64,000 nt of DNA, taken from a virus. Lineage: Duplodnaviria; Heunggongvirae; Uroviricota; Caudoviricetes. This document shows, piece by piece, positions 6,736 to 63,976 of this stretch (the first letter of the stretch is position 1; each line of letters begins with the position of its first letter). The stretch lies in the IMG/VR virus record IMGVR_UViG_3300020048_000021, positions 105,848 to 169,847 of that record. One strand, 5' to 3'. A program made the translations under genes and the position numbers. The notes beneath the pieces are model-generated. The model did not search any database and had not been told where the DNA came from. It saw only the letters and a program-made list of their open reading frames with translations.

Positions 6736-6790
6736 TGTTGTATTTTTACAACACTAATTATTTGACAATAAATCTGCTTTCCTCTATAAT
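6736..6790 (+). promoter_or_regulatory. PeSL-type cassette: palindrome TGTTGTA-N5-TACAACA followed by sigma70 promoter (TTGACA 6762-6767, TATAAT 6785-6790, 17 bp spacer)
   Basis: exact consensus boxes and 17-bp spacer read from sequence. Confidence 0.7.
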
Positions 6791-6819
6791 GGTTGTATTG
6801 TCTAAACAAGGAAGCAAAA

Positions 6820-7038
6820 ATGTCTAAAAAATACGTAGTTATTAGCCCTGATTCAAGCTCACTGAGCTATCGTGTCTATGAATTAGACATTATCGCTGGC
6901 ACTGAAGTTTGTGTGGGTAACTGTGTTGGTAGCTTTGATACTGACGAATACGCTCAAGCGTATGCCAGCGACATGCAAATGGTTCACGACTGGGAATCTG
7001 CCAATATTCAACTTGAAGTTGGCTGTGAATTTGACTAA
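6820..7038 (+). CDS. hypothetical protein
   Basis: ATG 6820 with RBS AAGGAAGCAAAAATG (ORF-track start 6793 lies in the promoter). Confidence 0.45.
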   Translation: MSKKYVVISPDSSSLSYRVYELDIIAGTEVCVGNCVGSFDTDEYAQAYASDMQMVHDWESANIQLEVGCEFD

Positions 7039-7040
7039 AG

Positions 7041-7093
7041 TGTTGTATTTTTACAACACTTTAGTTGACAGTAATTATAGTATTTGCTATAAT
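7041..7093 (+). promoter_or_regulatory. PeSL-type cassette: palindrome TGTTGTA-N5-TACAACA + promoter TTGACA(7065-7070)-17-TATAAT(7088-7093)
   Basis: sequence read. Confidence 0.7.
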
Positions 7094-7124
7094 TCACACT
7101 TACATTGATAAACAGGAATACAAA

Positions 7125-7472
7125 ATGAACGTAAATTTGAATGAACTCATTGAGGGACTCAATCAAGCAGAAAATCTGGTTGATCAAGTTTATCATTATG
7201 CCATGGAATCTGGCAATGCTGAATTACAAAGCATTATGAATAGTGCTGGCACTGGCATCAATGATGGTCGTAATATCTTGGACAATATCAAAAAGAACAA
7301 TGAAAAGAAATTACGTAACAATGAGTTATTGCAAAAATTGCAATTAGCTCAACAACTTCTTTCTGATGTTTATTACGATGCTTGTGAAAATAAAAATTCT
7401 GAAATCGAAAGCAATATGTCGGTTGCTGATGACTGTATTAATGACTCAATTGGTATGTTGGAGACAAAATAA
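7125..7472 (+). CDS. hypothetical protein
   Basis: ATG 7125 after RBS CAGGAATACAAAATG; ORF-track start 7065 lies in the promoter so is rejected. Confidence 0.45.
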   Translation: MNVNLNELIEGLNQAENLVDQVYHYAMESGNAELQSIMNSAGTGINDGRNILDNIKKNNEKKLRNNELLQKLQLAQQLLSDVYYDACENKNSEIESNMSVADDCINDSIGMLETK

Positions 7473-7879
7473 TGGCTTATGTATCTCAAGAAATGAAAGC
7501 TAAATTAGCACCCACAATTAAAGCTGTGCTGAAAAAGTACGGCGTTAAGGGTACGATTTCGGTTCAAAATCATATGTCGTTGGTAGTCAATATCAAGTCT
7601 GGCAGCATTGATTTTATCAAGAATTATAACGATACTGTATCGAAACAACCGGGTGGATTTCGCAATGGCGGACCCGCGGAGAAATATTTACAAGTAAATC
7701 ATTACTGGTATCATGAGCATTATTCTGGCGTTGTCAAGAAGTTCTTGGGTGAGTTGATTCAGGCAATGAAGGGTCCTGATTTCTTCGATCATACTGATGC
7801 TCAAATTGATTACTTTCATGTATCACATTACTTTGATATTAATATTGGTCGTTGGAATAAACCATACGAGTTAGTATGA
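7472..7879 (+). CDS. hypothetical protein
   Basis: ORF with ATGG overlap coupling. Confidence 0.45.
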   Translation: MAYVSQEMKAKLAPTIKAVLKKYGVKGTISVQNHMSLVVNIKSGSIDFIKNYNDTVSKQPGGFRNGGPAEKYLQVNHYWYHEHYSGVVKKFLGELIQAMKGPDFFDHTDAQIDYFHVSHYFDINIGRWNKPYELV

Positions 7880-8079
7880 TCTTATTTTCTATCAATTTCT
7901 TTTTTGCCATACTCTTTACAGTATTGGCATTTGATGCTAGTAAATGGACAGGTCGGACCGGAGCTGTGATATTCTATCTAGTGATAGCTGGTATGTGCTT
8001 GTTCTCATGTGTATACTCTATCATGAATCATGATTCAGAACCAGTCAAGCCAGTAGTTAATAAGTTTTTACTTGTATGA
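7876..8079 (+). CDS. small membrane protein
   Basis: 67 aa, two hydrophobic helices. Confidence 0.4.
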   Translation: MILFSINFFFAILFTVLAFDASKWTGRTGAVIFYLVIAGMCLFSCVYSIMNHDSEPVKPVVNKFLLV

Positions 8080-10569: not shown

Positions 10570-10598
10570 TTGACAATTAACCTAACTTAATATATAAT
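10570..10598 (+). promoter_or_regulatory. sigma70-type promoter TTGACA-17-TATAAT
   Basis: TTGACA 10570-10575, TATAAT 10593-10598. Confidence 0.6.
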
Positions 10599-11830: not shown

Positions 11831-11897
11831 AATTAGTTGACATTTAATTCATCATGAGTTATAATGTGTAAATAGTAGTAGAAATAAAAAGTTTAAT

Positions 11898-15999: not shown

Positions 16000-16365
16000 A
16001 TGAGAAATTATAATTCAAAGATAGAAGATATGGTAGGAAAAGTATTTACTTCAGTTACATCAGATCATGACACTATGGTATTCAAAAATGACACAGAATC
16101 GTTTACATTTTTTCATAGTCAAAGTTGCTGTGAGAATGTAGAGATCAATGACATTGTTGGTGATTTATCTGACTTGGTCGGAACTCCATTATTAATGGCA
16201 GAAGAAGTATCGGGTAGTGGTCCAGATTCAGAAGATTCGTGGACGTCACGTACTTGGACATTCTATAAATTTGCCACTATTCACGGATACGTAGATGTAC
16301 GCTGGCTGGGTGAGTCAAATGGCTACTATAGCGAGAGTGTCGATTTAGATCATCAAATGTTGTAA
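16000..16365 (+). CDS. hypothetical protein
   Basis: 121 aa ORF, RBS. Confidence 0.45.
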   Translation: MRNYNSKIEDMVGKVFTSVTSDHDTMVFKNDTESFTFFHSQSCCENVEINDIVGDLSDLVGTPLLMAEEVSGSGPDSEDSWTSRTWTFYKFATIHGYVDVRWLGESNGYYSESVDLDHQML

Positions 16366-16411
16366 AAATACAACACTATTATTTGACGATAATTCGGTTT
16401 TAGTGTATAAT
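16358..16411 (+). promoter_or_regulatory. PeSL cassette: palindrome + promoter TTGACG(16383-16388)-17-TATAAT(16406-16411) with conserved leader ATACACATACACTAGAGAAAAGGA
   Basis: sequence read; leader repeated at 16710, 17285, 63977. Confidence 0.7.
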
Positions 16412-16441
16412 ATACACATACACTAGAGAAAAGGATAGAAA

Positions 16442-16654
16442 ATGAGCGAATTAACAGCGTGTTCTAAAGAGGCAAAAGCCGTAGTAGAATTCGAGAATCG
16501 TATTAAATATATGATTATTATGAGCAATGGCTATCATGATCGGTTAAGTGCCATTCGCTGGATCGCTAAACGAGAAGGCGCTGTTAAAAACCCAGAATCT
16601 CTGTGTCTTTTGTTGGGTCTCCCACGCGATTACTTTGCCGGTGATTTTTTCTAA
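16442..16654 (+). CDS. hypothetical protein
   Basis: 70 aa ORF downstream of PeSL with RBS AAAAGGATAGAAAATG. Confidence 0.45.
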   Translation: MSELTACSKEAKAVVEFENRIKYMIIMSNGYHDRLSAIRWIAKREGAVKNPESLCLLLGLPRDYFAGDFF

Positions 16655-16709
16655 TGTTGTAAAAATACAACACTATTTGATTGACAGTAAATCCTGTTTA
16701 CTGTACAAT
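16655..16709 (+). promoter_or_regulatory. PeSL cassette: palindrome + promoter TTGACA(16681-16686)-17-TACAAT(16704-16709)
   Basis: sequence read. Confidence 0.7.
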
Positions 16710-16739
16710 ACACACATACACTAGAGAAAAGGAAGTACA

Positions 16740-17009
16740 ATGTCTAAAAAGAATGTCGCAGTTGTTCGTATGAAAACCCACGGGTCGCACGGCGGAACTG
16801 ATGTCAATTTCTTTGTCACTAAGAATTCTCAGATTAACATTCACGAGTATGCACACCCAAGTCATAGACGAAATGACGAGTCGCTACGCTATATTTGTGT
16901 AGATGATGGTCGTCATGGCAACGGTGGGTGGCTATTTGAAACAGATCGAGACTATAAACTCGCTGACGTATTAAAAGTGTTTGAAGATGCTTTCAACAGT
17001 TTGGACTAA
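16740..17009 (+). CDS. hypothetical protein
   Basis: 89 aa ORF after conserved leader AAAAGGAAGTACAATG. Confidence 0.45.
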   Translation: MSKKNVAVVRMKTHGSHGGTDVNFFVTKNSQINIHEYAHPSHRRNDESLRYICVDDGRHGNGGWLFETDRDYKLADVLKVFEDAFNSLD

Positions 17010-17010
17010 T

Positions 17011-17229
17011 ATGAAAATTACAATTGACGTTGAGGAAATTGCTCGATTGGCAGAAAAACATCAAGAAATTAGTTATAATTTCGATGTTCCGTTTATGGAT
17101 GCTTTACGAGAATTACATCCAGAGTTGTGGGAGCCAGTTGACAGAATTATGACTGAGCAGTTGAAAAACAAATACAAGTGGCAGCGAGTTGGGAATGTAA
17201 TGTTTATCGATCATACTCAATCAGAATAA
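17011..17229 (+). CDS. hypothetical protein
   Basis: ATG 17011 immediately after upstream TAA; ORF-track start 16981 overlaps upstream gene. Confidence 0.4.
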   Translation: MKITIDVEEIARLAEKHQEISYNFDVPFMDALRELHPELWEPVDRIMTEQLKNKYKWQRVGNVMFIDHTQSE

Positions 17230-17283
17230 TGTTGTAACAATACAACAAAATAACTTGACAGTAAATCGATATTCCTGTATAAT
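17230..17283 (+). promoter_or_regulatory. PeSL cassette: palindrome TGTTGTA-N4-TACAACA + promoter TTGACA(17255-17260)-17-TATAAT(17278-17283)
   Basis: sequence read. Confidence 0.7.
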
Positions 17284-17314
17284 ATACACATACACTAGAG
17301 AAAAGGAAGTAAAC

Positions 17315-17506
17315 ATGAATTTACTAAATCAAATGGAACAGGCTGAAGAAAAATTTTGTGATAAATTAGATGCCGAAGGTCCCGTTGTTATTCACGGCAT
17401 GAAGTTTGATCGTAGTTTGATCATGCGAGTAATGGCAGAAAATTATTATTCCGATGCTCTTGACGCTTATATGATTTCACTCGGAATCGATATTGATGGC
17501 GAATAA
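17315..17506 (+). CDS. hypothetical acidic protein
   Basis: ATG 17315 after leader AAAAGGAAGTAAACATG; ORF-track start lies in promoter. Confidence 0.45.
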   Translation: MNLLNQMEQAEEKFCDKLDAEGPVVIHGMKFDRSLIMRVMAENYYSDALDAYMISLGIDIDGE

Positions 17507-17507
17507 T

Positions 17508-17735
17508 ATGAGCATCGACAAAGTTATCGAAATTGTCGAACAGGCAGCAATTTATTCCCCAGTAACGGGCGAGTCAATTCGTATCGACTATTGGGATACT
17601 CCAGATGAGGATCCACAAGAAATGTTTTATGGGACTGGCGAAGAATCAGGCGAAGAATATGGAATTCGTTTTGATGAAGTCGATCTAGAATTAGATTTGT
17701 TTTACAAATTAGTTTTAATTAATCCTAAGGATTAA
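17508..17735 (+). CDS. hypothetical acidic protein
   Basis: 75 aa ORF, acidic DE-rich. Confidence 0.4.
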   Translation: MSIDKVIEIVEQAAIYSPVTGESIRIDYWDTPDEDPQEMFYGTGEESGEEYGIRFDEVDLELDLFYKLVLINPKD

Positions 17736-17753
17736 TCAGAAAAAGGAAAAGCA

Positions 17754-17945
17754 ATGACCGTAACCGTGGCTAAAATGAACAACAAGATTGTTGAAGTTCT
17801 TAGAGTAGCGGAAACAGTTGGCTTCTCTGACGAACGTGGTTGGGTCTGTATTTGCTATCATGTAGGCGATGTTAATAGCAACGCCGTTAAGTGGGTAAAA
17901 ATAGACAAAAATCATTTTTCTTGGATAAGAGAATTTAATTTTTAA
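17754..17945 (+). CDS. hypothetical protein
   Basis: 63 aa, RBS AAAAGGAAAAGCAATG. Confidence 0.4.
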   Translation: MTVTVAKMNNKIVEVLRVAETVGFSDERGWVCICYHVGDVNSNAVKWVKIDKNHFSWIREFNF

Positions 17946-17961
17946 AAGTAGTTAAATTCTC

Positions 17962-17990
17962 TTGACAATAAATCAGTAGTACGCTATAAT
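17962..17990 (+). promoter_or_regulatory. sigma70-type promoter TTGACAATAAATC-17-TATAAT driving the third tRNA/structured-RNA cluster
   Basis: TTGACA 17962-17967, TATAAT 17985-17990. Confidence 0.65.
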
Positions 17991-18029
17991 AGAAGTTCAG
18001 TAAGTAAATCGTTCTTTAAAAATCAGACG

Positions 18030-49736: not shown

Positions 49737-49737
49737 T

Positions 49738-52375: not shown

Positions 52376-52819
52376 ATGAAAAAAGGCGAAATGCTTGACA
52401 GGATGTTAGTTATTGCTACTAATGCTCACTCTGGTCAATTTGATCGTGGGGGTGCTCCATATATTCTTCATCCTCTTAGAGTTATGTCGTTTTTAAAAAC
52501 CTCTGATGAAGAATTACAATGTATTGCTTTGGGACATGATGTTATCGAAGACACCGATGTTACCTATAAGGATTTAGCTGATAGTGGAATCTCTGAACGT
52601 GTTATTATCGGCATTCGTGCTTTGACTAAAGTTCCGGGAGAAACTCTTGATGAATACAAAGCACGAGTTTTTGCCAATATTGATGCCATGCAAGTTAAAC
52701 TTTGTGACTTACGGCACAATACGGATATTCGCCGCTTAAAGGGCGTTACAGAAAAAGATATTGCCCGTATGGCAAAATATCATACTTTTTATTTAGAAAT
52801 TCAAGCACGTTTAGATTGA
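52376..52819 (+). CDS. HD-domain protein of the RelA/SpoT hydrolase type (candidate (p)ppGpp hydrolase)
   Basis: ATNAHSGQFDRGGAPYILHPLRV and IALGHDVIEDTD match the SpoT-type HD hydrolase motif; 147 aa. Confidence 0.55.
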   Translation: MKKGEMLDRMLVIATNAHSGQFDRGGAPYILHPLRVMSFLKTSDEELQCIALGHDVIEDTDVTYKDLADSGISERVIIGIRALTKVPGETLDEYKARVFANIDAMQVKLCDLRHNTDIRRLKGVTEKDIARMAKYHTFYLEIQARLD

Positions 52820-52844
52820 CAGTAAATCAGAATTCTGATACAAT
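52816..52844 (+). promoter_or_regulatory. sigma70-type promoter TTGACAGTAAATC-17-TACAAT upstream of rIIA
   Basis: TTGACA 52816-52821, TACAAT 52839-52844. Confidence 0.6.
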
Positions 52845-52877
52845 TACACTTACACTGACACACAACAAGAGATTTTA

Positions 52878-55079
52878 ATGATTCTTAATAATACCCCAAA
52901 ACACGAAGCAGTTCTTAGCAATGTTGGCGAAATCGGTGAATTCCGAATTCGTAATAGTGCTAAGGCATTCTCGATTCTATCTAGTGGCTTATATGCCAAT
53001 AAAATTCGTGCCATTATTCGTGAATTATCATGTAATGCTGTAGACAGTCATGTGGCGGCTGATTGTCCTGATACGCCATTCGATGTTCATCTGCCTACTA
53101 GTTTAGAACCGTGGTTTTCTATTCGTGATTATGGAACTGGCTTATCTCACGATCAAGTTACACGAATTTACACTACATATTTTGAATCGACCAAAACTGG
53201 ATCAAACGATTTTATCGGAGCATTGGGTCTTGGCTCAAAATCCCCATTCTCTTATACTGACAACTTTACTGTTGCTGCCGTACAAAATGGAGTTCGTGGA
53301 ATTTATTCTGCCTTTATTAACGCTGATGGTGTTCCCAGTATTGCTCTTATGTCTACAGAAACATCAGATCAACCAAATGGCGTTGAGATCAAATTTTCTG
53401 TAAATTCTTCATATGATTATTCAAAGTTTCGTGAAGAAGCCCAAAATGTTTATCTTCATTTCAAATTACGTCCAGTTTTTAATATTGATTTAAAGATCAA
53501 CACTCATGAATATAGCTCGCGAGATATTATTACTGGAGTTCATGAGTACAAGAATCGAACTGTTACTACTGCCATTATGGGTAATATTGCTTATCCAATT
53601 GACGTTCCAAACTCTAGAACTGCGTTAGGGGATTTATCACAACTGCTAAATTCCAATCTTGAAATGCACTTTGATATTGGTGAATTAGACTTTCAGGCAA
53701 GTCGTGAGGGCTTGTCGTATGTTCCACAAACCATTGAGGCTATCAAGAATAAGCTAGCAAAGATCAACTCGGCTCTTACTAAGCGACTGACAACAGAAAT
53801 GGATTTGATCGAAAATCTATGGGATCGTGCCCATATGTTGAGCAAGAAAATGGAACGAAATTTATGGCGCGAAGCAGTAGTAAAATACATTGCTGATACC
53901 AAATTTCCTTTGCTTAAAGCATCCGGTGGATATGGAAATTATTCGGTTTTTGATCTGTTGAGTTTGGAATTACAATCTAAGTATAACATTGTAATTCGTT
54001 CATTTACTGTATCTAGTACTACTGGTAATAAGATAACGTGTTCTATTAATCACGAACGTTCTGTTCGTATTATTGACCCGAAAAATCCGACCGCTCTTCA
54101 TCAACAGGGTTGGCAAATTCCGTCTTCGCCCAGTGTTAGCTTTATCGTTAATGATACAAAAAAGGGAGCGACTGAGCGTTCTAAATTTCATTATCGTTCA
54201 ACCAAAACCAATCACTCAACAGAGACAATTTATGTTATTGAGCCATTTGATCGTAGTAAGAAAATTGAAGTAGATGAATTTTTTAAATTTTTGAAAAATC
54301 CTCCTCGTGTTGTATTGGTCAGCACTTTGTTACAAAAAGAACGTAAGTCAGTAAACAAAGATGTAACCATTATGAGTTTACAACGGCGAGATCCTCGCGG
54401 CTATAATAGTAATAGCAGTGATTTAGTATGGCGAGATGCAGGCAAAAGCGATAGTTTTTGTACAACCACTACTCACTACTACTTACCATTGAATGGATTC
54501 ATTATGACTTCCAAATATGAATGGATTCAATCTGCCAGTGAGTTGGGTAGTATCTTACGAAACATTGAATTCGGTGATTTAAATAAAATTAACGTTTATG
54601 GTGTTCGTAAGGGTGATATTAAGTTTATTGAATCACAGACAAATTGGGTCAATTTAGAAGATCATATTGTTGCCACACTTGTTAAGTTTCGTAGCAATAT
54701 TATTGATACAATGATGTCCAAATCTCTTGACTATTTTGTCTTTGGGAAGTATAATAAGAATACAGCATCAATTTTAAATCAAGTCACTGATTCAACCGGT
54801 AAATACTCAGCATTGATTAATAAGATTAAGCAATTGAATACTATTCCAATGTCTAGTGAAAGTTGTATTAAGCAGTTAGTAAGTGGATATGATAAAGATA
54901 CAATGTCATTGATCACTTCAAGTATTACTAAATTACACTCTGAGTGTAAGGAATGCTACAATCATTATCCATTGTTATCTATGTTGGAACATTCCATTAA
55001 TCAGTTTAGTTTTGATAGCAGTAAATTTGCAGACTACATTAATTTAATTGATAGTAAATCTAATAAAAAGGAAATTTAA
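52878..55079 (+). CDS. rIIA: rIIA protein (membrane-integrity protector)
   Basis: AKAFSILSSGLYANKIRAIIRELSCNAVDSH and NDFIGALGLGSKSPFSYTDNFTVAA align with T4 rIIA; 733 aa. Confidence 0.8.
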   Translation: MILNNTPKHEAVLSNVGEIGEFRIRNSAKAFSILSSGLYANKIRAIIRELSCNAVDSHVAADCPDTPFDVHLPTSLEPWFSIRDYGTGLSHDQVTRIYTTYFESTKTGSNDFIGALGLGSKSPFSYTDNFTVAAVQNGVRGIYSAFINADGVPSIALMSTETSDQPNGVEIKFSVNSSYDYSKFREEAQNVYLHFKLRPVFNIDLKINTHEYSSRDIITGVHEYKNRTVTTAIMGNIAYPIDVPNSRTALGDLSQLLNSNLEMHFDIGELDFQASREGLSYVPQTIEAIKNKLAKINSALTKRLTTEMDLIENLWDRAHMLSKKMERNLWREAVVKYIADTKFPLLKASGGYGNYSVFDLLSLELQSKYNIVIRSFTVSSTTGNKITCSINHERSVRIIDPKNPTALHQQGWQIPSSPSVSFIVNDTKKGATERSKFHYRSTKTNHSTETIYVIEPFDRSKKIEVDEFFKFLKNPPRVVLVSTLLQKERKSVNKDVTIMSLQRRDPRGYNSNSSDLVWRDAGKSDSFCTTTTHYYLPLNGFIMTSKYEWIQSASELGSILRNIEFGDLNKINVYGVRKGDIKFIESQTNWVNLEDHIVATLVKFRSNIIDTMMSKSLDYFVFGKYNKNTASILNQVTDSTGKYSALINKIKQLNTIPMSSESCIKQLVSGYDKDTMSLITSSITKLHSECKECYNHYPLLSMLEHSINQFSFDSSKFADYINLIDSKSNKKEI

Positions 55080-55080
55080 A

Positions 55081-55896
55081 ATGTCTTATCCGTATATTGT
55101 ACAAGGTAATAACATCGTAGTGGTCATTGACAATCAGCCACATACGATTTCTAAAACACACATCACTTATCAAAAAGTGCTGGATGCCATTAAGGCAAAT
55201 GATTGGGATGCAGTTAAAGACGTAATCGAACCAAAGAAAGTAGTTCTGAATTACGGTCAAGGTAACGTTGAAATTCAAGGCGAAACTTTGTTTTGGCGTG
55301 GAACTGAAATGCACAATTCACTCACCACTAGAATGATTTCTATGTTGCAAGAGGGTTTCCCAATTGAACCTTTGGTATTGTTCATGGAAAATCTTATGAG
55401 CAATCCAAGCAAGCGTGCAGTTGATGAACTGTATGGTTTCTTGGAACACAATGTTCTTCCGATTACACCCGATGGTCATTTCTTGGCTTACAAGAAAGTC
55501 CGTGAAGACTATATGGACGTTCATAGCGGAACTTTCAATAACTCAGTCGGTAAGATTTGTGAAATGGAACGTAATCAAGTTGACGATGACAAAGATCGTA
55601 CTTGTTCGACTGGATTGCACTTTTGCTCACAAGAGTATTTGTCTAGCTTTGGTGGTCAACATACGATGATTCTCAAGATCAATCCTCGTGACGTTGTTAG
55701 TATTCCTAGTGATTACAACAACAGCAAGGGTCGTACTTGTCGCTACGAAGTTATCGACGAATTGGCAGTGGATCCAAGTGATGCATTTACTCGTTCGATT
55801 CAAAATTCTGCTAATGGTTCTGATCTTTACGAAGATGAAGACGATTGGATCGATGATGACGAAGACGAGTTCGATACGTCTAAAGGCTGGAATTAA
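55081..55896 (+). CDS. rIIB: rIIB protein
   Basis: ATG 55081; LENLMSNPSKRAVDELYGFL... CSTGLHFCSQEYL... INPRDVVSIPSDYNNSKGRTCRYEVIDEL align with T4 rIIB. Confidence 0.8.
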   Translation: MSYPYIVQGNNIVVVIDNQPHTISKTHITYQKVLDAIKANDWDAVKDVIEPKKVVLNYGQGNVEIQGETLFWRGTEMHNSLTTRMISMLQEGFPIEPLVLFMENLMSNPSKRAVDELYGFLEHNVLPITPDGHFLAYKKVREDYMDVHSGTFNNSVGKICEMERNQVDDDKDRTCSTGLHFCSQEYLSSFGGQHTMILKINPRDVVSIPSDYNNSKGRTCRYEVIDELAVDPSDAFTRSIQNSANGSDLYEDEDDWIDDDEDEFDTSKGWN

Positions 55897-55902
55897 TCAA
55901 TC

Positions 55903-56382
55903 ATGATCGAGATTCAAGCACCTAATAGTGATGAACATATCGATCATGTTCTGCCAAGAATCTTTTTGGCAGGGTCAATCGAAATGGGTGTAGCTGAAAA
56001 TTGGCAAACTCGTGTTACTAAAGATTTGGCTGATTATGACGTGGTGCTATTGAATCCTCGTCGTGATGATTGGGATTCGTCGTGGAAACAATCTATCGAC
56101 GATCCTCAGTTTAATGAACAGGTTTCATGGGAACTGAACGGGTTAGAATCTGCCAGCTTCATTATCTTTTATTTTGATCCTAGTACTAAGTCACCAATTA
56201 CATTAATGGAATTGGGTTTGGAAGCTAGTTCACATGGACACTTAGTAGTATGTTGCCCAGAAGGTTTTTGGCGTAAGGGTAATGTAGAAATGGTATGTGA
56301 TCGATATGCTATTCCATTGTACGATAACTACGATGAGATGATCACTCACGTTAAAGATTATCTTGGCTTGTATGTATGTTAA
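55903..56382 (+). CDS. nucleoside 2-deoxyribosyltransferase-like protein
   Basis: IFLAGSIEMG ... VVLLNPRRDDWD resembles NDT-family blocks. Confidence 0.45.
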   Translation: MIEIQAPNSDEHIDHVLPRIFLAGSIEMGVAENWQTRVTKDLADYDVVLLNPRRDDWDSSWKQSIDDPQFNEQVSWELNGLESASFIIFYFDPSTKSPITLMELGLEASSHGHLVVCCPEGFWRKGNVEMVCDRYAIPLYDNYDEMITHVKDYLGLYVC

Positions 56383-56477
56383 TGTTGGAATAAATTATGA
56401 ACGACGTATTTTTGATTATGATTTTAATTATTTGTATTCTGTTTCTTGTCATCTCATCAAAGTAGGAAAGTAAAATA

Positions 56478-56987
56478 ATGAAACACACAGTTGAATACGA
56501 GTTGATTAATCGTTTCTATGGAGATCGGGTCGCCCGGCGTAGCCAAGTTCCATTGATCAATCATATCAACGAAGGATTAGTTGTTCTCTCTGTTATTGGT
56601 GCCACAGATGCGGTCAAACGAGCATTTTGTATTCATCCTTTGTTACAAGCAGACGAAGATTTACAAGAGAACTATTATATTGCTTCCTTGATTGACCCTC
56701 ATGTGTTAATGTTGGCCATGGAGTATCGTAGTGTGGCAAATGAGTATTTGAGCAACAAAGTAAACACAGAGCAAGAGATTCGGTTAAGCCCATTGAAGGA
56801 AGTCAATCAAATGTTGATTGCCGACAAGGTACAAAACTACAAAGACTTTTTAACATATCACTATGATACTCACGAACTCAGTGCTGAGTTACTTGTATAC
56901 TTTGCAAGATGGTTTAAGAAACTGGATATTGACGATGCGACATATCTTGATCTCTGCAAAGCAATTGACGAAAGGAAAGTAAAATGA
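56478..56987 (+). CDS. hypothetical protein
   Basis: 169 aa ORF. Confidence 0.4.
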   Translation: MKHTVEYELINRFYGDRVARRSQVPLINHINEGLVVLSVIGATDAVKRAFCIHPLLQADEDLQENYYIASLIDPHVLMLAMEYRSVANEYLSNKVNTEQEIRLSPLKEVNQMLIADKVQNYKDFLTYHYDTHELSAELLVYFARWFKKLDIDDATYLDLCKAIDERKVK

Positions 56988-57223
56988 ACAAGATGAATGA
57001 CGCACTTGGCAATGAAATCGTAATCGGTCAACGGTACGGATATTCTACATCGAGTACCGTAGTGATCGGCCGCGCTGTTCGGTTGACTACTTTAAAGGTC
57101 ACCATAGAAAATGAAAAGACTCGTCATTTCTTATACGGCGAAGAAACTGTGAGAGATTGGGTCGGTAATGCAAAGACTGTATCAGTTTTCTCATGGCACC
57201 TATTTCCAATAAAGGACGTGTAA
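56984..57223 (+). CDS. hypothetical protein
   Basis: 79 aa, ATGA coupling. Confidence 0.4.
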   Translation: MNKMNDALGNEIVIGQRYGYSTSSTVVIGRAVRLTTLKVTIENEKTRHFLYGEETVRDWVGNAKTVSVFSWHLFPIKDV

Positions 57224-57435
57224 TGTTAAAAGATCGTAGAATATTAGTAGAGAAAGAACTTAACAAGACAAGAGCAGACGCAGCTATTGTGTACATGGAC
57301 ATGATGCGTAGTGAGATAACAAACTACGACGGCTTTCGGCTCGATGAGACGTATCAAGACCTCAAAGAACGCATTACGGATTTGACCATTGACCTAAGCG
57401 TGATCAATAGTCTGATCGAACAGGGACACGAATAA
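57223..57435 (+). CDS. hypothetical protein
   Basis: ATG 57223 overlapping upstream TAA by 1 nt. Confidence 0.35.
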   Translation: MLKDRRILVEKELNKTRADAAIVYMDMMRSEITNYDGFRLDETYQDLKERITDLTIDLSVINSLIEQGHE

Positions 57436-57680
57436 TGTTCTCAGTCGTAGTTGATGATAAGGTGGAGGACATTCGTTATAAACGTCACACTGAATATTCA
57501 TATCTTGTTTACTTAGGAGACAGATACATTGGACAAGTGTTTCGTCCCGATAAAGGATGGGATTTAGTGTCCACTAATTCGCCAGACATTGCCATGTCGC
57601 TAGGCGCAATGTCTGGATTCAGAACAAGACATAATGCGACAGAAATGTTGCTGAGATTGAATCAAATAGGCGGTAGATAA
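57435..57680 (+). CDS. hypothetical protein
   Basis: 81 aa, TAATG coupling. Confidence 0.4.
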   Translation: MFSVVVDDKVEDIRYKRHTEYSYLVYLGDRYIGQVFRPDKGWDLVSTNSPDIAMSLGAMSGFRTRHNATEMLLRLNQIGGR

Positions 57681-57928
57681 TGGACTGGGATAAAGAACCT
57701 AAACTAAAAGAATTTGCAGAGGCATTCGCTGACTATCTCAACGATGTAGGCTGTATGGACAATCCAGATGGTTGGATGGGTTCACACAAAATTGTATCCC
57801 GAATCAATATCCTATGCGAAGATTCGGATGAAGATATTGAGTATGAAGTATGCGGACTAGAATATGATCAGCTAATGGGCTGTGGTTGCCCCGCAGATAT
57901 TACAATTAAAATACGGAAAGTAAAATAA
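57680..57928 (+). CDS. hypothetical acidic protein
   Basis: 82 aa, TAATG coupling. Confidence 0.4.
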   Translation: MDWDKEPKLKEFAEAFADYLNDVGCMDNPDGWMGSHKIVSRINILCEDSDEDIEYEVCGLEYDQLMGCGCPADITIKIRKVK

Positions 57929-57960
57929 AAGAAATTAATTTAAAATCAATAAATAGTAAT

Positions 57961-58668
57961 ATGAGAACAGTAGAAGAAATTTCTAAAATTAAATCTAGAA
58001 TGACTGATCCGTATGCTATTCAAGATTTTTTGTCTATTGACGAAATAAATCATCTAATTGATTTATTTGAATCTCAAGAAATCGAACCAAATAAAGTATA
58101 TAAAAATACAGGTCCGATAACTCTAGATATTAAATTTCATTTAACTGATTCAGTAATATCTAAAATTATCGATAAACTAGTTAAAGAAATTGGACCATTT
58201 GAAATAACTGCTGGATTTTTCTTTACAACAAATTATCCACATATTATACATAATGATGATACATTTGAATTACCGAGCACCGTATATAAGGGAATAACTA
58301 TACCATTAAAAACGTATGGATCGAATAATATACCCAAACTTTGTTTTTTCGATCAATGTTACTTTCATGGTCCCGCTAAATTTTTTAATGAGGATAGTAA
58401 TATTCCAACATACTACAACAAGCAAATATATGAGTACTCGGACGTAGACGGAATTCAGAATGAAATGCTTATTGATGAATCCACAAGAGTTAAACATTTA
58501 ACACATTTAAAAACAATGTGGTTAAAGGGCTTAACACTGTGGGGAACATTAGATTGGAAACCCACCAGTGCATTAATTTTCGATAGTGTGAAATTACATT
58601 GCGCCAGCGATTTTAGAACTCAAGGAATTGAGCGTAAATTAGGTATAAGTATTTTTACAAAATTATAA
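57961..58668 (+). CDS. hypothetical protein
   Basis: 235 aa ORF in the local AT-rich stretch. Confidence 0.4.
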   Translation: MRTVEEISKIKSRMTDPYAIQDFLSIDEINHLIDLFESQEIEPNKVYKNTGPITLDIKFHLTDSVISKIIDKLVKEIGPFEITAGFFFTTNYPHIIHNDDTFELPSTVYKGITIPLKTYGSNNIPKLCFFDQCYFHGPAKFFNEDSNIPTYYNKQIYEYSDVDGIQNEMLIDESTRVKHLTHLKTMWLKGLTLWGTLDWKPTSALIFDSVKLHCASDFRTQGIERKLGISIFTKL

Positions 58669-58749
58669 GTTACTATCTCAGATAGTATCAAGTTTCAAAG
58701 TTGAAGTATATTAATATTGAACTTCAATGAAGCGAAAAATTATTTTAAG

Positions 58750-59442
58750 TCAATGAGTGTGTGCTAAACTTGCAATTACTTTTGATACATTAGATGTTGT
58801 AAACGGAACATTAATAATTAAGTGTTGACTATTATCAACCCAGCTAATAGTACGATGTGTCATACGTGTATTAACATAGTATACTTGACCCATTTGTATG
58901 TTCATTTTTCTATCATCCATTAACCAATCATACTGTAATGGCCCACAATTGTTTAAGAATACTATTAAACGAAAACATTCTCGTGGCATACTAGGATGAT
59001 CTCGATGAGGAACAAAGTATCCTCCTATATTAGATTGTACGATGAATGTTCGACCCAACGGTGACCACGAATTTAAAAATGAATGTAAACTAGTACACGC
59101 TCTATACACATCAGTTGGCTCGGTAAATTCTGTCTCACTTACTCTTCGACCAGCCTCGTAACTGGCTTGTGCGTTACTAGGAGAATCAATGTGAGTTTTC
59201 CCGGGAAGATTGGTAAGAGTTAACGCTCGTCTATTATTATGACGATCGGTACGAGGCAAATAATCTACCCAATCATTATTAAATTGACTTATTTCATTCA
59301 TATATTGACCAGTATTAATCCATATATTCAATGGTTCAAATGATCCGAGACTGAGTAACGAGAGTTCATTTGACAATGTTTCATTGTCAACATTTCCCGT
59401 ATACTCAGCAGATCGTCCACTTATTCCTGGTGGTACTTTCAT
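58750..59442 (-). CDS. hypothetical protein, possible cupin/2OG-Fe(II) oxygenase-like
   Basis: VPHRDH (HxD) and downstream MTHRT His. Confidence 0.3.
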   Translation of the reverse strand: MKVPPGISGRSAEYTGNVDNETLSNELSLLSLGSFEPLNIWINTGQYMNEISQFNNDWVDYLPRTDRHNNRRALTLTNLPGKTHIDSPSNAQASYEAGRRVSETEFTEPTDVYRACTSLHSFLNSWSPLGRTFIVQSNIGGYFVPHRDHPSMPRECFRLIVFLNNCGPLQYDWLMDDRKMNIQMGQVYYVNTRMTHRTISWVDNSQHLIINVPFTTSNVSKVIASLAHTH

Positions 59443-60092
59443 ATGTAACTTACCATTGAGTTTATGTCAGATCTTTTTATTCTAGTAGGGATGTCTCTGA
59501 TAGAGGAATGATGATTAGCAAGATCAAACCCCATTTCAACATTGTCATTATAAACTTTCATAGTTTGGCTTATATCATGACTAGTAGCATATCCAAATCC
59601 CATACTAACTATCGCAGTTGACTTAGGCTTGTTTAATCTATCAGCTATTTCTCGACCACCGATACATCCGCAAAATCCTGTATTAACACCTAGTTCTTCT
59701 GCTTGACACATGGCCATTGTAGCACTAATAATACAATCGTTATTAGTTCGTAAGAACTCGTTTTCATTATAATCGTTAACTGCCTGATCAAATTGTTTTG
59801 CTAGCCAAATCATTACAACAGGCGCCAGTACTTGTCCATTATATCTTCGTAGTCCTTCTCCTGGTTTATCTCGTACTTTATCCAAACACGAAGTATTGTC
59901 CCAATACAACCATTGTTTAAATTCTTTGCCGGTAGGACTATCTGTAAGTACAACTATTTCAAAATCATAGTTACCTTGTTTACTTGGCGCCAAATATGCA
60001 CACTCAATTATGGTTTTGATTTTTTCATCTTCGAGTGATCGGTCTTGCCACCATTTGGTTGTGTAACGATTTCTTAAATGATCTAATAACAT
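59439..60092 (-). CDS. hypothetical protein (possible nitroreductase-like fold)
   Basis: 217 aa, 4-nt overlap with downstream minus-strand gene; weak resemblance only. Confidence 0.3.
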   Translation of the reverse strand: MLLDHLRNRYTTKWWQDRSLEDEKIKTIIECAYLAPSKQGNYDFEIVVLTDSPTGKEFKQWLYWDNTSCLDKVRDKPGEGLRRYNGQVLAPVVMIWLAKQFDQAVNDYNENEFLRTNNDCIISATMAMCQAEELGVNTGFCGCIGGREIADRLNKPKSTAIVSMGFGYATSHDISQTMKVYNDNVEMGFDLANHHSSIRDIPTRIKRSDINSMVSYI

Positions 60093-60159
60093 ATTTATCC
60101 TAATAATATATATTTATCGTGTTATTCTATCATAACAAAAATATGTTTGTCCTAATTTA

Positions 60160-60188
60160 TTGACAAAATTCATTTAATATTATATAAT
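60160..60188 (+). promoter_or_regulatory. sigma70-type promoter TTGACA-17-TATAAT
   Basis: TTGACA 60160-60165, TATAAT 60183-60188. Confidence 0.55.
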
Positions 60189-60229
60189 ATTAAATCAAGT
60201 GATATTACAATTAAAATACGGAAAATAAA

Positions 60230-60499
60230 ATGATTATTAAAGATGCTACGCCTCATCAACAAGCATTGGCTGATTTACTAAACAAAAAACTTGACGAATA
60301 TTATATTGAATATGGGTCAGAACATGTTGCTGATAAATTCTTAGAATTTATTATGACTCATGATGAGCATACTCAGAAACAAATGAAGGCGGTATCATTA
60401 ATGACAATTCAGCAATTGGCAAATAATATTGGCACTCTTGAAGTTCAGCAAGAAGCACAAGAGAGCATAACAAGAATTTTAAAGAAACATTTGCCATGA
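60230..60499 (+). CDS. hypothetical protein
   Basis: 89 aa, RBS ACGGAAAATAAAATG. Confidence 0.4.
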   Translation: MIIKDATPHQQALADLLNKKLDEYYIEYGSEHVADKFLEFIMTHDEHTQKQMKAVSLMTIQQLANNIGTLEVQQEAQESITRILKKHLP

Positions 60500-61023
60500 A
60501 CAAAGAATTGATTAAAGAACTTGCTACGCTATCTGAAATGAATCCAAAAGTAGTAAGTTTAATCTTAGCCACTTGGGCACCTTTACCAGAAGCTAATCTT
60601 ATCTTGTCTAAGTTAATGATTAACGATATTCAATCTCGTCTAGATGCTGATGATGATACATGGTCAGACATGGATACATATCATTATGGCTTTAAACAGT
60701 TGCTACTTGAATGCGCTCGTGGACGTGCGGCTGGTGTATTAGATGCACGACAAATCAAAAAGATTATTGATGATTGTTGGTCATATCCGTATGTTGGATA
60801 TGATCTAATTCAATATGTAATCAAGTCAAAACTGTTTGATGGTGAAGTCGCAGGTGATGAGTTAACCGCTATCATTAAGAAAGCAATGGAAGCTAATCCC
60901 AAGGCTGTAGCAGAGCTTAAACAGGGCAAAGACAAGGCAATTGGTGCATTGGTTGGTGCTGTTATGAAACAACAAAAGGCAAGCCCACAAGAAGTACAGG
61001 CTATTATTAGATCGTTACTATAG
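60496..61023 (+). CDS. GatB/YqeY-domain protein
   Basis: C-terminal AMEANPKAVAELKQGKDKAIGALVGAVMKQQKASPQEVQAIIRSLL matches the YqeY/GatB C-terminal consensus. Confidence 0.5.
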   Translation: MNKELIKELATLSEMNPKVVSLILATWAPLPEANLILSKLMINDIQSRLDADDDTWSDMDTYHYGFKQLLLECARGRAAGVLDARQIKKIIDDCWSYPYVGYDLIQYVIKSKLFDGEVAGDELTAIIKKAMEANPKAVAELKQGKDKAIGALVGAVMKQQKASPQEVQAIIRSLL

Positions 61024-61032: not shown

Positions 61033-61266
61033 ATGAACGAACGAATCAAAGAACTTGCAGTACAGGCTGGTTTACCGACATATATCACACGAGAGATCGG
61101 TCCAACAATAATTCAAAAGTTTGCCAAATTATTGATCAATGAATGTACCGAACAGATTAGATTAAAAGGTACAGACTGGATGGATTTTGCTCCCAGTCAA
61201 CATGGAATTCGCCCAGAGTATGTGGCAATGGCCCAACACATCAACGAGCATTTCGGAGTTGAATAG
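61033..61266 (+). CDS. MNERIKEL...HFGVE paralog family protein
   Basis: MNERIKELAVQAG... ends EHFGVE. Confidence 0.5.
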   Translation: MNERIKELAVQAGLPTYITREIGPTIIQKFAKLLINECTEQIRLKGTDWMDFAPSQHGIRPEYVAMAQHINEHFGVE

Positions 61267-61503: not shown

Positions 61504-61874
61504 ATCCATTTAAGGATCAAGAGCAATTTATGAAAGCGTGTGACCAATCAGTTGGTGACTTTAACGAAGCACAGTATAAACTATATTGTGATTTGATTGA
61601 CGAAGAATACAACGATGAATTCAAACATGCGTTGGCTACTAATGATCGAGTAGAGCAGTTAGACGCTCTAATTGACATTCTAGTGGTCACGATTGGTGCT
61701 ATCCATAGCGGTGGGTTTGATGCAGAAGGTGCTTGGAATGAAGTAATGAAAACAAACTTCGCCAAAATCGATCTCGATACAGGTAAAGTACGTAAGCGTG
61801 AAGACGGGAAAGTTTTAAAACCGGATGGTTGGGTCGCACCTAACTTGACACCATTCTTAAAGAAGACGGACTGA
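61500..61874 (+). CDS. MazG-like nucleotide pyrophosphohydrolase
   Basis: EExxE/DxxD pattern in DLIDEEYNDEFKHALATNDRVEQLDALIDILVV. Confidence 0.5.
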   Translation: MNPFKDQEQFMKACDQSVGDFNEAQYKLYCDLIDEEYNDEFKHALATNDRVEQLDALIDILVVTIGAIHSGGFDAEGAWNEVMKTNFAKIDLDTGKVRKREDGKVLKPDGWVAPNLTPFLKKTD

Positions 61875-62065
61875 TGAACGAACGAATCAAAGATTTCTTT
61901 CTACTCGTGTTGGTTCACGGGCTGATTCTGCCAGTATTCTGGTTGATTGTTTGGTACAGTGCCCTACACGAACGAGTCAAGGAGATGTACTATCGTTTGT
62001 TTGGTATTCCTTATTACAAAGGCCGAGACAAGTTTATTGACTATGTTAGAAGGACAGACCGATGA
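61874..62065 (+). CDS. small membrane protein starting MNERIKDF
   Basis: 63 aa, shares N-terminal nucleotide/peptide motif with the MNERI paralogs, then TM helix. Confidence 0.4.
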   Translation: MNERIKDFFLLVLVHGLILPVFWLIVWYSALHERVKEMYYRLFGIPYYKGRDKFIDYVRRTDR

Positions 62066-62256
62066 ACGAACGAATTAGAGAACTTTTAGAACAATCTGGT
62101 GTAAAATATGTCACTATGCCTAAAGACACGGTGTACGAAAAGTTCGCTGAGTTGATTGTTAGAGCGTGTGCGGGTGTTTGTCTTGAACAACGTCAATATC
62201 AACCCAAAGAGGTATATGCTAAGGCAGTGTTATCACATTTCGGAGTTGAAGAATGA
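62062..62256 (+). CDS. MNERIKEL...HFGVEE paralog family protein
   Basis: MNERIRELLEQSGV... ends SHFGVEE; GATGA coupling. Confidence 0.5.
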   Translation: MNERIRELLEQSGVKYVTMPKDTVYEKFAELIVRACAGVCLEQRQYQPKEVYAKAVLSHFGVEE

Positions 62257-62579
62257 ACGAACGAATTAGAGAACTATTGAAACAGAGTACCAATCCTCCC
62301 TGGGATGGTGAGCAGGGTCCAATGAACGAATTTAATCTGGAACGGTTCGCCGAGTTGATTGTGAAAGAAATGTGTGACATGATGGAACAAGCAGAGGATG
62401 ATTCGTATCATTGCTTTGAGCCAAGTGAAAGACCCATGGATTACATTCGATTCCTTTATGATTGGCGTACAAGATTTGAAAAACATTTCGGAGTTGAAGA
62501 ACAGACCATCTCTCAGAAAATGGCAGATGCCGGATATACTCGCAGACCACGTGGTTGGACAAAGGAAGATTCAGAATGA
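62253..62579 (+). CDS. MNERIKEL...HFGVEE paralog family protein (extended C-terminus)
   Basis: MNERIRELLKQS... internal KHFGVEEQ. Confidence 0.5.
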   Translation: MNERIRELLKQSTNPPWDGEQGPMNEFNLERFAELIVKEMCDMMEQAEDDSYHCFEPSERPMDYIRFLYDWRTRFEKHFGVEEQTISQKMADAGYTRRPRGWTKEDSE

Positions 62580-62788
62580 AAGAACGTTGGTATAAATTCT
62601 GGTTGCACGTCAATAATGAGATTGGTTCTTTAATTTTTCTTGTAATATTACTATACGCTGATATATTGGATATGATTGAGACAAAATGCAAGAACTTTCT
62701 ACATCGTATGAAAATAAAAAAAATACATAAAGAGAATCCCGAAATTATAGAACTAACAAAATTAGCAGGCATTAAACAACCTGACTAA
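62576..62788 (+). CDS. small membrane protein
   Basis: ATG 62576 in GAATGA overlap; hydrophobic segment. Confidence 0.35.
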   Translation: MKERWYKFWLHVNNEIGSLIFLVILLYADILDMIETKCKNFLHRMKIKKIHKENPEIIELTKLAGIKQPD

Positions 62789-62878
62789 ATACTTTCACTG
62801 CGTTAAACAATGCGTAGTCCTTAACAGAATTAAAACTATGGGCACTTATTCTGTGTGCCGTTACAAATGGAGAAGTAA

Positions 62879-63886
62879 ATGATGTACTCAAACAAGCTAG
62901 CAGTAGCAATCAAAACTAATGGGCAAGTCCTTCGTGAGTATGGGGATAAAGTCTATGTCAAATTCAATTCCGAATATTCAATTCTAATCAAAAATCTACA
63001 CACCACACGAGCAGTAGTCAACGTGTTCATCGACGGAGTAAATCAAACTCCAAGCGGTCTTGTAATCGATGCTGGTCGTGAGTGTGACTTTGAACGTAGT
63101 CTACTTAATGGAAGTTTAACTGCTGGCAACAAATTCAAATTTATTGAACGTACTGCTGGTATTGAGCAGCATCGTGGCGTACAACTCGAAGATGGATTGG
63201 TAAAAATTGAATATCAATTTGAAGCCGCTATGCAATATCGCACAACCACTAATACATTTTTGGTACACGATCATTACTACAATGGTCTCAAAGTTGGCAC
63301 AAGCAATCACCCACTGAATGTAGATAAAAGTTGGTTATCTGCCAGTGGGTCGTCTGTCAATGCTTACAACTCTAGTATAGCGACATCTCATTCTAGTTTT
63401 CGTGGAATGAGTGGGGGTGGGGGTGGTCAACCTACTGGAGGAATGGGTGGGGGTGGGGGTCCTGCACCTGAGGGAGTTTACAACGTAGGTGGTATCGCTC
63501 GTAGTGCTGATGTGAGCAAGAATGGTCAGTTTACTGGTGCGGTAGCAAGTGCGGCTGTCAATCAATACTGTAAGGACAACGGCATCAATTCATTCACAGG
63601 CGAGGTGCACGAGGGCTGTGCTACTATGGACTTGTACAACGATACTGGCATCACGGTAAGCGGCAGCAAGAGTACCCAGAAGTTCGCTACGACCACAATG
63701 GGCACTATGGATCCAGACAAATTCTCGATGGTCATTAAATTGTTGGGCGAGACGCCAGATAACAAGCCTGTACTTAAGCCTGTTACTGTAAAATCAAAAC
63801 CTAAATGCGTTACTTGTGGAACTCAAAATAAAGCAACTGCTCATTTTTGTACTAAGTGTGGGACAGCATTAGAAATCTTCGCTTAA
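62879..63886 (+). CDS. hypothetical protein with Gly-rich linker and C-terminal zinc ribbon
   Basis: GMSGGGGGQPTGGMGGGGGP and CVTCGTQNKATAHFCTKCGT. Confidence 0.45.
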   Translation: MMYSNKLAVAIKTNGQVLREYGDKVYVKFNSEYSILIKNLHTTRAVVNVFIDGVNQTPSGLVIDAGRECDFERSLLNGSLTAGNKFKFIERTAGIEQHRGVQLEDGLVKIEYQFEAAMQYRTTTNTFLVHDHYYNGLKVGTSNHPLNVDKSWLSASGSSVNAYNSSIATSHSSFRGMSGGGGGQPTGGMGGGGGPAPEGVYNVGGIARSADVSKNGQFTGAVASAAVNQYCKDNGINSFTGEVHEGCATMDLYNDTGITVSGSKSTQKFATTTMGTMDPDKFSMVIKLLGETPDNKPVLKPVTVKSKPKCVTCGTQNKATAHFCTKCGTALEIFA

Positions 63887-63911
63887 ACTGCTCAAAAAGT
63901 AAGCAAAAAGG

Positions 63912-63976
63912 TGTTGTAGAAATACAACACTTTTTTACGGCAAAATATTGACAATAAATCCATATTCCTGTATAAT
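63912..63976 (+). promoter_or_regulatory. PeSL cassette: palindrome TGTTGTA-N4-TACAACA followed by T-run, then promoter TTGACA(63948-63953)-17-TATAAT(63971-63976) and conserved leader
   Basis: sequence read; leader ATACACATACACTAGAGAAAAGGA identical to copies at 16412, 16710 and 17285. Confidence 0.7.

Follow-up and report, generated by a model that had tools for sequence, protein, structure and literature searches.

A promoter-linked palindrome in the early or accessory region of an uncultivated phage: stem-loop or possible protein site?

Is a short inverted repeat that recurs in front of strong phage promoters kept because its RNA folds, or because a protein reads its sequence? The question is raised by TGTTGTA-N4-TACAACA, a palindrome that is repeated along 64,000 nucleotides (nt) of the IMG/VR virus record IMGVR_UViG_3300020048_000021 (Caudoviricetes; record positions 105,848 to 169,847). 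This whole stretch is called the window below, and all coordinates refer to it. The window belongs to the early or accessory part of the genome of a large phage that has not been cultivated, and it carries rIIA/rIIB, NAMPT and phosphoribosyl pyrophosphate (PRPP) synthetase genes, two RNA ligases, 32 tRNAs and many small open reading frames (ORFs), almost all on the + strand. A first-pass annotation had likened the repeats to the promoter-early stem-loop (PeSL) cassettes of T4-type phages. The PeSL-like architecture was recovered: a stop codon, the inverted repeat, an A/T-rich spacer, a near-consensus sigma70 promoter, a Shine-Dalgarno (SD) sequence and/or ATG, and a small ORF. For the palindrome itself we lean, with less than even confidence, towards a site on duplex DNA that a protein recognises by its sequence, and that also serves as a stem-loop where its flanks extend.

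Eight exact copies of the palindrome were found in the window (6736, 7041, 16358, 16655, 17230, 40259, 52293 and 63912), against 0.00 expected from 100 shuffles. The annotation had placed it at ten sites; the remaining two, 31953 (TGTTGTAAAAAAACAACA) and 39987 (TGTTGTTTTTATACAACA), carry one mismatch each, in both cases at the loop-closing pair. All ten copies lie on the + strand upstream of a near-consensus sigma70 promoter, and these ten promoters deviate from the consensus at 0-1 positions. Exact TTGACA-N17-TATAAT occurs 16 times, always on the + strand (0.03 expected); with up to one mismatch and a 16-18 nt spacer, 31 promoters are found on the + strand and 3 on the - strand. The extended -35 element TTGACANTAAAT is present 14 times on the + strand and never on the - strand, and the extended form of the promoter reads TTGACA-nTAAATc-N-TATAATa. 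The near-perfect consensus claimed for the cassettes holds apart from one-base deviations at 16383 (TTGACG), 16704 (TACAAT) and 52340 (TATACT). The promoter had also been placed about 10 bp past the palindrome; the gap to the -35 measures 6-8 nt for eight copies, 18 nt for 63912 and 56 nt for 31953. The ten cassettes are as follows.

6736-6822, + strand: cassette 1; palindrome 6736-6753 (centre TTTT), -35 at 6762-6767, -10 at 6785-6790, SD AAGGA, ATG at 6820.
7041-7127, + strand: cassette 2; palindrome 7041-7058 (TTTT) in a 17-bp extended stem, -35 at 7065-7070, -10 at 7088-7093, ATG at 7125.
16358-16444, + strand: cassette 3; palindrome 16358-16375 (AAAA, holding the upstream TAA), -35 at 16383-16388 (TTGACG), -10 at 16406-16411, leader 16414-16435, ATG at 16442; bare hairpin of -5.6 kcal/mol.
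16655-16742, + strand: cassette 4; palindrome 16655-16672 (AAAA), -35 at 16681-16686, -10 at 16704-16709 (TACAAT), leader 16712-16733, ATG at 16740.
17230-17317, + strand: cassette 5; palindrome 17230-17247 (ACAA), -35 at 17255-17260, -10 at 17278-17283, leader 17286-17307, ATG at 17315.
31953-32088, + strand: cassette 6; near-palindrome 31953-31970 (one mismatch), -35 at 32027-32032, -10 at 32050-32055, ATG at 32086.
39987-40050, + strand: cassette 7; near-palindrome 39987-40004 (one mismatch), -35 at 40013-40018, -10 at 40036-40041, leaderless ATG at 40048.
40259-40320, + strand: cassette 8; palindrome 40259-40276 (AAAA, holding the upstream TAA), -35 at 40283-40288, -10 at 40306-40311, leaderless ATG at 40318.
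52293-52378, + strand: cassette 9; palindrome 52293-52310 (TTTT) in a 12-bp stem, -35 at 52317-52322, -10 at 52340-52345 (TATACT), ATG at 52376.
63912-64000, + strand: cassette 10; palindrome 63912-63929 (GAAA) within AAAAAGG..CTTTTTT, -35 at 63948-63953, -10 at 63971-63976; the leader, 63979-64000, is cut by the end of the window.

An upstream + strand stop codon lies within or near the cassette in nine of the ten copies, the exception being 6736; in cassette 2, this codon (TAA, 7036-7038) is located inside the stem. The spacers upstream of the -35 are A/T-rich (ctaattat, ctattat, aaataac, aatcta). Downstream of the promoter, seven copies have a leader of 22-24 nt with an AAGGA SD sequence, and two are leaderless (40048 and 40318), with the ATG beginning at the seventh nt after the -10. 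The leader described earlier as conserved, ACACATACACTAGAGAAAAGGA, is indeed identical at four sites (16414, 16712, 17286 and 63979), although the sequence as written is 22 nt and not 24 nt long. The ORFs behind the cassettes encode 63-147 amino acids (aa), lie in a region of small ORFs and tRNAs, and in some cases have homologues. The ORF of cassette 8 (within 40306-40638) encodes a stand-alone GIY-YIG domain of 106 aa from a leaderless mRNA. Homologues of it were seen in 33 contigs; in each case the start lies about 6 nt past a consensus -10, and a hairpin and a promoter come before it.

Three of the cassettes (16358, 16655 and 17230) form direct repeats, 298 and 574 bp apart, that flank ORFs of 70-89 aa. 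Cassettes separated by 45-46 kb are also nearly identical. Cassettes 2 and 9 agree at 37 of 39 positions (7036-7074 and 52288-52326), and cassettes 5 and 10 agree at 51 of 53 (17255-17307 and 63948-64000), including the normally variable spacer. Cassettes so distant and so nearly identical indicate that whole cassettes were probably copied or gene-converted between distant sites, and recently.

By sequence criteria the palindrome is mostly not a terminator. Pairing is possible over 6-7 bp in all copies, with -4.1 to -5.9 kcal/mol for the core alone. Six window copies have neither a stem extension nor a U-tract; such bare copies reach -5.6 to -6.7 kcal/mol (z about -2), and none of them passes a simple terminator scan in the window. 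Longer stems of 12-17 bp are predicted for 7041 (-20.6 kcal/mol, z -5.9) and 52293 (-17.4 kcal/mol, z about -6). A GC-rich stem followed by a U-tract is absent in eight of the ten copies and present at 63912, where AAAAAGG-core-CTTTTTT (-16.1 kcal/mol, z -5.9) has the shape of a canonical bidirectional terminator. In cassette 6, a separate canonical terminator at about 31976-32011 (CCCCC..GGGGG, then T6; -23.5 kcal/mol, z -3.4) lies between the near-palindrome and the -35. At 6736, which lies in a divergent region, the preceding gene (6128-6721) is encoded on the - strand, and hence there is no + strand gene to terminate. No palindrome was found in the window where blocks of + strand genes end against - strand genes. 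The terminator role that comes with the PeSL assignment is therefore doubtful for most copies, given the weak core, the six unextended stems and the lack of a co-directional gene upstream of 6736. Canonical terminators are not enriched in the window; one of the few is a clean bidirectional one at 49738-49761 (AAAATGCCTC-CGAA-GAGGCATTTT), directly after the ORF 49188-49736. In Rfam searches only tRNAs match in the window, and 16300-18300 is empty at E values up to 1.

The palindrome core is present in hundreds of IMG/VR contigs: the cassette pattern recurs in at least 119 stretches, and the bare 18-mers with a GAAA or an AAAA loop are each present in at least 120; these matches are phylogenetically non-independent, and the counts given here and below are of matches listed. 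Among the matches listed, 66 of 119 loci have ORFs in common with the window, but these are no more than 30-75% identical in aa sequence; spacers, leaders and flanks are unrelated in sequence. Scans made without a promoter requirement placed a strong promoter within 60 nt of about 63-70% of the palindromes (among the matches listed). The palindrome arms are invariant, whereas the 4-nt centre is variable and A/T-rich (AAAA, GAAA, TTTT, TTAA and others). Invariant arms around a free centre are the signature of a dimeric operator. In the boxB-like leader hairpins of related contigs it is the other way round: the stems covary and the GAAA loop is fixed.

Near-cognate copies beside strong promoters carry no compensatory or wobble-biased core changes; their substitutions cluster at half-site positions 1, 6 and 7 of both arms. 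The variant TGTTGCA-N4-TACAACA places a C.A mismatch in the sense RNA, and TGTTGTA-N4-TGCAACA a U.G wobble. Among the matches listed, each yielded 71 good cassettes from about 95 unique matches, figures for which relative quality is comparable and totals are not. Both variants are the same duplex, 5'-TGTTGCAAAAATACAACA-3', in either orientation to the promoter (about 65 cases), and the mirror element is rare (about 9). Stem extensions occur in only 9% of the dominant AAAA type, in which the next 8 nt hold 4.0 A vs 2.0 T and the mean minimum free energy is -7.3 kcal/mol. The stem is unextended, and T is not enriched, in 81 of 127 promoter-linked copies. Flank covariation in the promoter-selected set does not exceed that in shuffles; it was detected in the GAAA subset alone. 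Two or three palindromes may also stand in tandem, at about 19-31 bp from start to start. One gene family has the palindrome further downstream: it begins 8 nt past the -10, at about +2 to +19 of the transcript, a position kept across diverged homologues.

The reading to which we incline, short of an even chance, can be set out as a mechanism. Each cassette would restart transcription into the next small ORF through a fixed SD leader or a leaderless start. The palindrome would be kept for its sequence and not merely for its capacity to pair, acting as a 7-4-7 operator on double-stranded DNA for a putative dimeric (winged-)helix-turn-helix binder of phage or host origin. Such a binder could regulate the strong promoter next to it or insulate that promoter, for instance by turning early promoters off or stopping read-through. 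The palindrome may also fold in the transcript, as an RNA stem-loop or terminator, where its flanks extend (7041 and 52293) and especially where a U-tract follows (63912). A further step, possible but less likely than not, is that the element is the operator of a regulator common to a very large clade of apparently freshwater, uncultivated phages, or of a hijacked host factor, and would serve the concerted switching or insulation of early promoters.

A number of findings weigh against a protein site, and most of them are what would be expected of a plain PeSL element, that is, an RNA stem-loop only (an attenuator, a terminator, or a 3'-end or 5' stabiliser) that owes its identity to cassette copying and common descent. 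We regard this explanation as possible rather than probable, and as close behind the protein-site reading. The palindrome abuts upstream stop codons, with a gap of 0-3 nt or a built-in stop in 71 of 147 copies. The loops are GNRA-biased and polar with respect to transcription (GAAA 62 vs TTTC 1; AAAA 83 vs TTTT 24); a built-in stop codon as the cause of this polarity was rejected, with 16 TAA and no TAG in the 62 GAAA copies. Because the IMG/VR counts are of matches listed and phylogenetically non-independent, the orientation statistics are indicative only. In the GAAA type, 47% of copies have stem-extending flanks and 39% are followed by at least 5 T, and flanks pair in 52 of 94 copies vs 34.8 +/- 3.6 in shuffles. 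Copies with covarying GC extensions and T-runs, most of them with GAAA loops (about 40-47% of the GAAA type), look like true terminators. At about 25 homologous loci downstream of a gene for a 90-aa winged helix-turn-helix (wHTH) protein, the stem base covaries (GGGGC/GCC, GAGGG/CCTTT) while the apex is unchanged, and the G.U pairs there are valid in the sense strand only. In the window, 7041 and 52293 differ at just two positions over 39 nt, and these compensate each other in the stem extension (A-T replaced by T-A), so pairing has been selected in at least those copies, and 63912 has the full terminator shape. Relatives carry unrelated canonical terminators in the same slot before the promoter. 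Hairpins that stabilise the 5' end need to be positioned at the 5' end of the transcript, and the copies at +2 start within 1-2 nt of the predicted one. A stem-loop TGTAGTA-GAAA-TACTACA also lies after the major capsid gene of PA5oct, and PeSL cassettes are reported to have a lineage-specific stem-loop consensus (PMC4122927). Two further points tell against an operator: the distance to the -35 varies from 1 to 56 nt (Rayleigh p = 0.13 at 10.5 bp), and no candidate for the cognate regulator was found in the window ORFs or by clustering of the ORFs around 300 loci. The 90-aa wHTH family adjoins many copies, only as the upstream gene of one homologous locus. A helically phased activator site or UP element was rejected, as the phasing is not significant (p = 0.13). 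Against a plain stem-loop stand the weak core energy, the unextended majority of promoter-linked copies, the A-runs that follow the AAAA type, the core changes that are neither compensatory nor wobble-biased, the widespread C.A-mismatch variant, the persistence of the exact core across 30-75% aa divergence with unrelated flanks, and the copy at 6736, which has no upstream + strand gene.

Two other explanations were considered. The folded RNA hairpin may itself be recognised by a sequence-specific RNA-binding protein or endoribonuclease, which could for instance process early polycistronic transcripts or make them more stable. This would reconcile the sense polarity and the structural extensions with the sequence conservation, and it would allow for the varied places that the hairpin takes in transcripts, at either end or, where no promoter follows, between genes. 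It is nonetheless unlikely in our estimate: with an invariant stem and a free loop, the element has the reverse of the signature of known protein-hairpin pairs, the mismatch variant is common, and neither an Rfam family nor an RNA-binding candidate was seen. We give still less weight to a recombination or mobility site, in which the palindrome would be the cassette end or a hotspot for PeSL-type shuffling and mini-circles, with regulation secondary. The direct-repeat cassettes around ORFs of 70-89 aa, the near-identical cassettes 45-46 kb apart, the RB49 crossovers at the stem-loop (PMC2839356), and a small GIY-YIG nuclease conserved in the clade directly behind such cassettes are consistent with it. 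However, arms of 7 nt are too short for homologous recombination and no recombinase is linked; moreover, since the duplex occurs in either orientation relative to the promoter, palindrome and promoter are separable modules, which also counts against a recombination site.

How the preferred reading, a protein site within a PeSL-like cassette, relates to known systems was assessed by comparison. PeSL cassettes have been described in RB49/phi1, PST/T4 and nt-1/KVP40 (Arbiol et al., 2010, PMC2839356; Comeau et al., 2014, PMC4122927). In these, the stem-loop sits either ahead of the promoter or directly behind the -10 (PMC2839356, PMC4122927), each lineage has its own stem-loop consensus (PMC4122927), and RB49 crossovers were mapped to the stem-loop (PMC2839356). 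The palindrome cassettes share with them a strong sigma70-like early promoter with an inverted repeat and SD/ATG in many copies among small, presumably non-essential ORFs, direct repeats around putative ORFans, and an inverted repeat that may stand on either side of the promoter. Unlike the published stem-loops, which are of a low-complexity G/C type (Gn-loop-Cn; A3-4G3-loop-C3T3-4) and terminate in a lacZ assay, the window core is a specific A/T-rich 7-mer that is invariant over very divergent contigs, mostly weak and without a U-tract, and pair-breaking variants of the phage palindrome are tolerated. The new part is a clade-wide, sequence-invariant and mostly non-terminator palindrome; the architecture is already known from PeSL.

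A dimeric helix-turn-helix operator, exemplified by a predicted ArsR-family 18-mer, has the same 7-4-7 geometry, invariant arms, a free A/T-rich centre and degenerate half-site edges. It likewise occurs in tandem arrays and at sites upstream of or overlapping the promoter start, with a half-site spacing of about 11 bp; the phage element differs in its loose promoter spacing and sense-polar loops. The phi29 protein p4 recognises inverted repeats located immediately before strong sigma-A promoters and turns early promoters off. It provides a mechanistic analogy for an upstream-bound regulator of early promoters, although its sites are unrelated in sequence and geometry and few per genome, and its host is Gram-positive. 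In PA5oct, 36 predicted terminators 'with conserved stem loops' lie near RNA-seq stops (Lood et al., 2020, PMC7318152). This phage likewise has TTGAC/TATAATA promoters, and one terminator has a near-identical core (MK797984, 87073-87108: AAAAAAAG-TGTAGTA-GAAA-TACTACA-CTTTTTT, 37 nt after the major capsid gene), which equals the window core with one symmetric base-pair swap and is single-copy in the 90 kb examined. In contrast to the window, the core is not a promoter-linked repeat family there, and the other terminators are GC-rich. No match to the cassette was found in cultured phages, the PA5oct element being the sole analogue, and searches of the literature for the palindrome strings returned only unrelated primer matches.

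Bacterial genomes provide a second line of comparison. In 185k of them, the exact AAAA 18-mer gives single, taxonomically scattered matches, with 1 of 120 (probably phage DNA) lying before a strong promoter. A host-chromosome promoter motif was rejected as a general element on the basis of these sporadic matches. At certain loci, the 18-mer is conserved. In many Actinobacteria, TGTTGTAAAAATACAACA is conserved in the intergenic region between the divergent starts of an ArsR-family gene and an SRPBCC-like gene; in Methylophilaceae, the 18-mer lies about 120 nt upstream of a porin gene, beside a Pho-box-like sequence, and stays exact while the flanks diverge; and conserved operator-like loci are also present in Chloroflexi and Nitrospirae. 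Conservation at bacterial regulator and porin loci makes a protein operator plausible. Methylophilaceae are a possible host lead. Integron attC and the consensuses of Fis, IHF, CRP/FNR, LexA and parS gave no convincing fit to the palindrome.

The consequences differ between readings. If the palindrome is only a stem-loop, the PeSL picture gains a lineage outside the cultured T4-likes, a useful and expected result. If its sequence is read by a protein, the PeSL 'stem-loop' would have to be reconsidered, for some lineages at least, as a regulatory operator or an insulator and not a terminator; TGTTGTA-N4-TACAACA with TTGACA-N17-TATAAT would be a searchable marker for the early regions of the clade, and the element would provide a direct handle on the clade's regulator of early transcription and perhaps on its host. 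A shared operator would imply regulon-like early-gene control over hundreds of promoters, which is unknown in T4-type or jumbo lytic phages. As compact, very strong and insulated promoter-leader units, some of them leaderless, the cassettes could interest synthetic biologists.

Promoters of the same type also occur without the palindrome. About twelve had been proposed, a fair estimate: 16 intergenic sites were counted with up to one mismatch, and at least five of these serve tRNA clusters instead of ORFs.

10570-10598, + strand: consensus promoter without palindrome.
11837-11865, + strand: consensus promoter between tRNA-Ala and tRNA-Asn.
17962-18022, + strand: consensus promoter with a different 10-bp inverted repeat upstream and the tRNA cluster 18282-18715 downstream.
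21643-21671, + strand: consensus promoter driving tRNA-Asp.
22579-22607, + strand: consensus promoter after tRNA-Cys, driving ORF 22631.
23671-23699, + strand: promoter TAGACA/TATAAT driving ORF 23729.
27347-27375, + strand: promoter TTGACT/TATAAT driving tRNA-Ser and tRNA-Gly.
29375-29403, + strand: promoter TTGACT/TATAAT.
30786-30814, + strand: consensus promoter driving the tRNA-Met/Arg/Leu/Val cluster.
33239-33267, + strand: consensus promoter of the NAMPT gene (33299), with a cassette-like leader.
38795-38823, + strand: promoter TTGACA/TATACT.
43460-43488, + strand: promoter TTGACT/TATAAT driving ORF 43512.
47072-47100, + strand: consensus promoter in a divergent region, driving ORF 47122.
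51748-51777, + strand: promoter with an 18-nt spacer and TATACT.
52816-52844, + strand: promoter TTGACAGTAAATC/TACAAT driving rIIA.
60160-60188, + strand: consensus promoter in a divergent region, driving ORF 60230.

The 17962 promoter has a boxA-like sequence in its leader, ahead of the tRNA cluster (GTTCTTTAAAAA, 18011-18022); the boxA of the E. coli rrn operons is TGCTCTTTAACAA. Among related IMG/VR contigs, there are many in which a promoter of this type is followed directly by a covarying boxB-like hairpin, GTTGA-GAAA-TCAAC, and then by TGTTCTTTAAAAA. These boxA/boxB-like leaders suggest a possible rrn-type antitermination of phage tRNA or long operons. Two tRNA calls differ between the programs: at 18452-18522, ARAGORN reports an odd tRNA-??? 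whose anticodon has 2 nt and which Rfam does not confirm, and Rfam detects an extra weak tRNA at 22210-22292 that is absent from the ARAGORN list. The PRPP synthetase-like and NAMPT genes are adjacent (32369-34798) and form a nicotinamide adenine dinucleotide (NAD) salvage module, with the NAMPT promoter and leader of cassette type and without the palindrome.

The phage to which the window belongs has few close relatives. No near-DNA relative was present among 50,697 cultured phage records. The rIIA of the window reaches a best identity of 46% to cultured phages, with Otagovirus among the top matches (44.5%), and its 847-aa ORF has no phage match. The affiliation to T4-type phages assumed at the outset is therefore not established; no T4 core gene was recognised in the window, and rIIA/rIIB, RNA ligases, NAMPT and tRNAs also occur outside the T4-likes. 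A single close relative is available, an 11.6-kb contig (ENA ERZ27262919 k141_56999), which corresponds to window positions 48947-60573 and is 99.98% identical over 11.6 kb, with 2 substitutions and no indel. As this contig comes from an independent metagenome, the phage has been sampled at least twice. The next relatives share at most 50% aa identity, and the closest IMG/VR rIIA 45-50%.

Several further features of the window were observed. Four paralogous small ORFs of 64-77 aa (40648-40869, 40866-41084, 61033-61266 and 62062-62256) share N-termini of the form MNE(R/L)I..L(A/L)EQ and C-termini ending in ..FGVEE, and their 5' ends are conserved (repeat families D7 and D12). A 65-aa ORF (22006-22203) matches Pfam Hc1, a chlamydial histone H1-like family, with E = 1e-11 and has homologues in several related contigs. 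Inside the ORF 62879-63886, a 36-nt tandem repeat (63404-63475) codes for a Gly-rich stretch (GGAATGGGTGGGGGTGGGGGT...).

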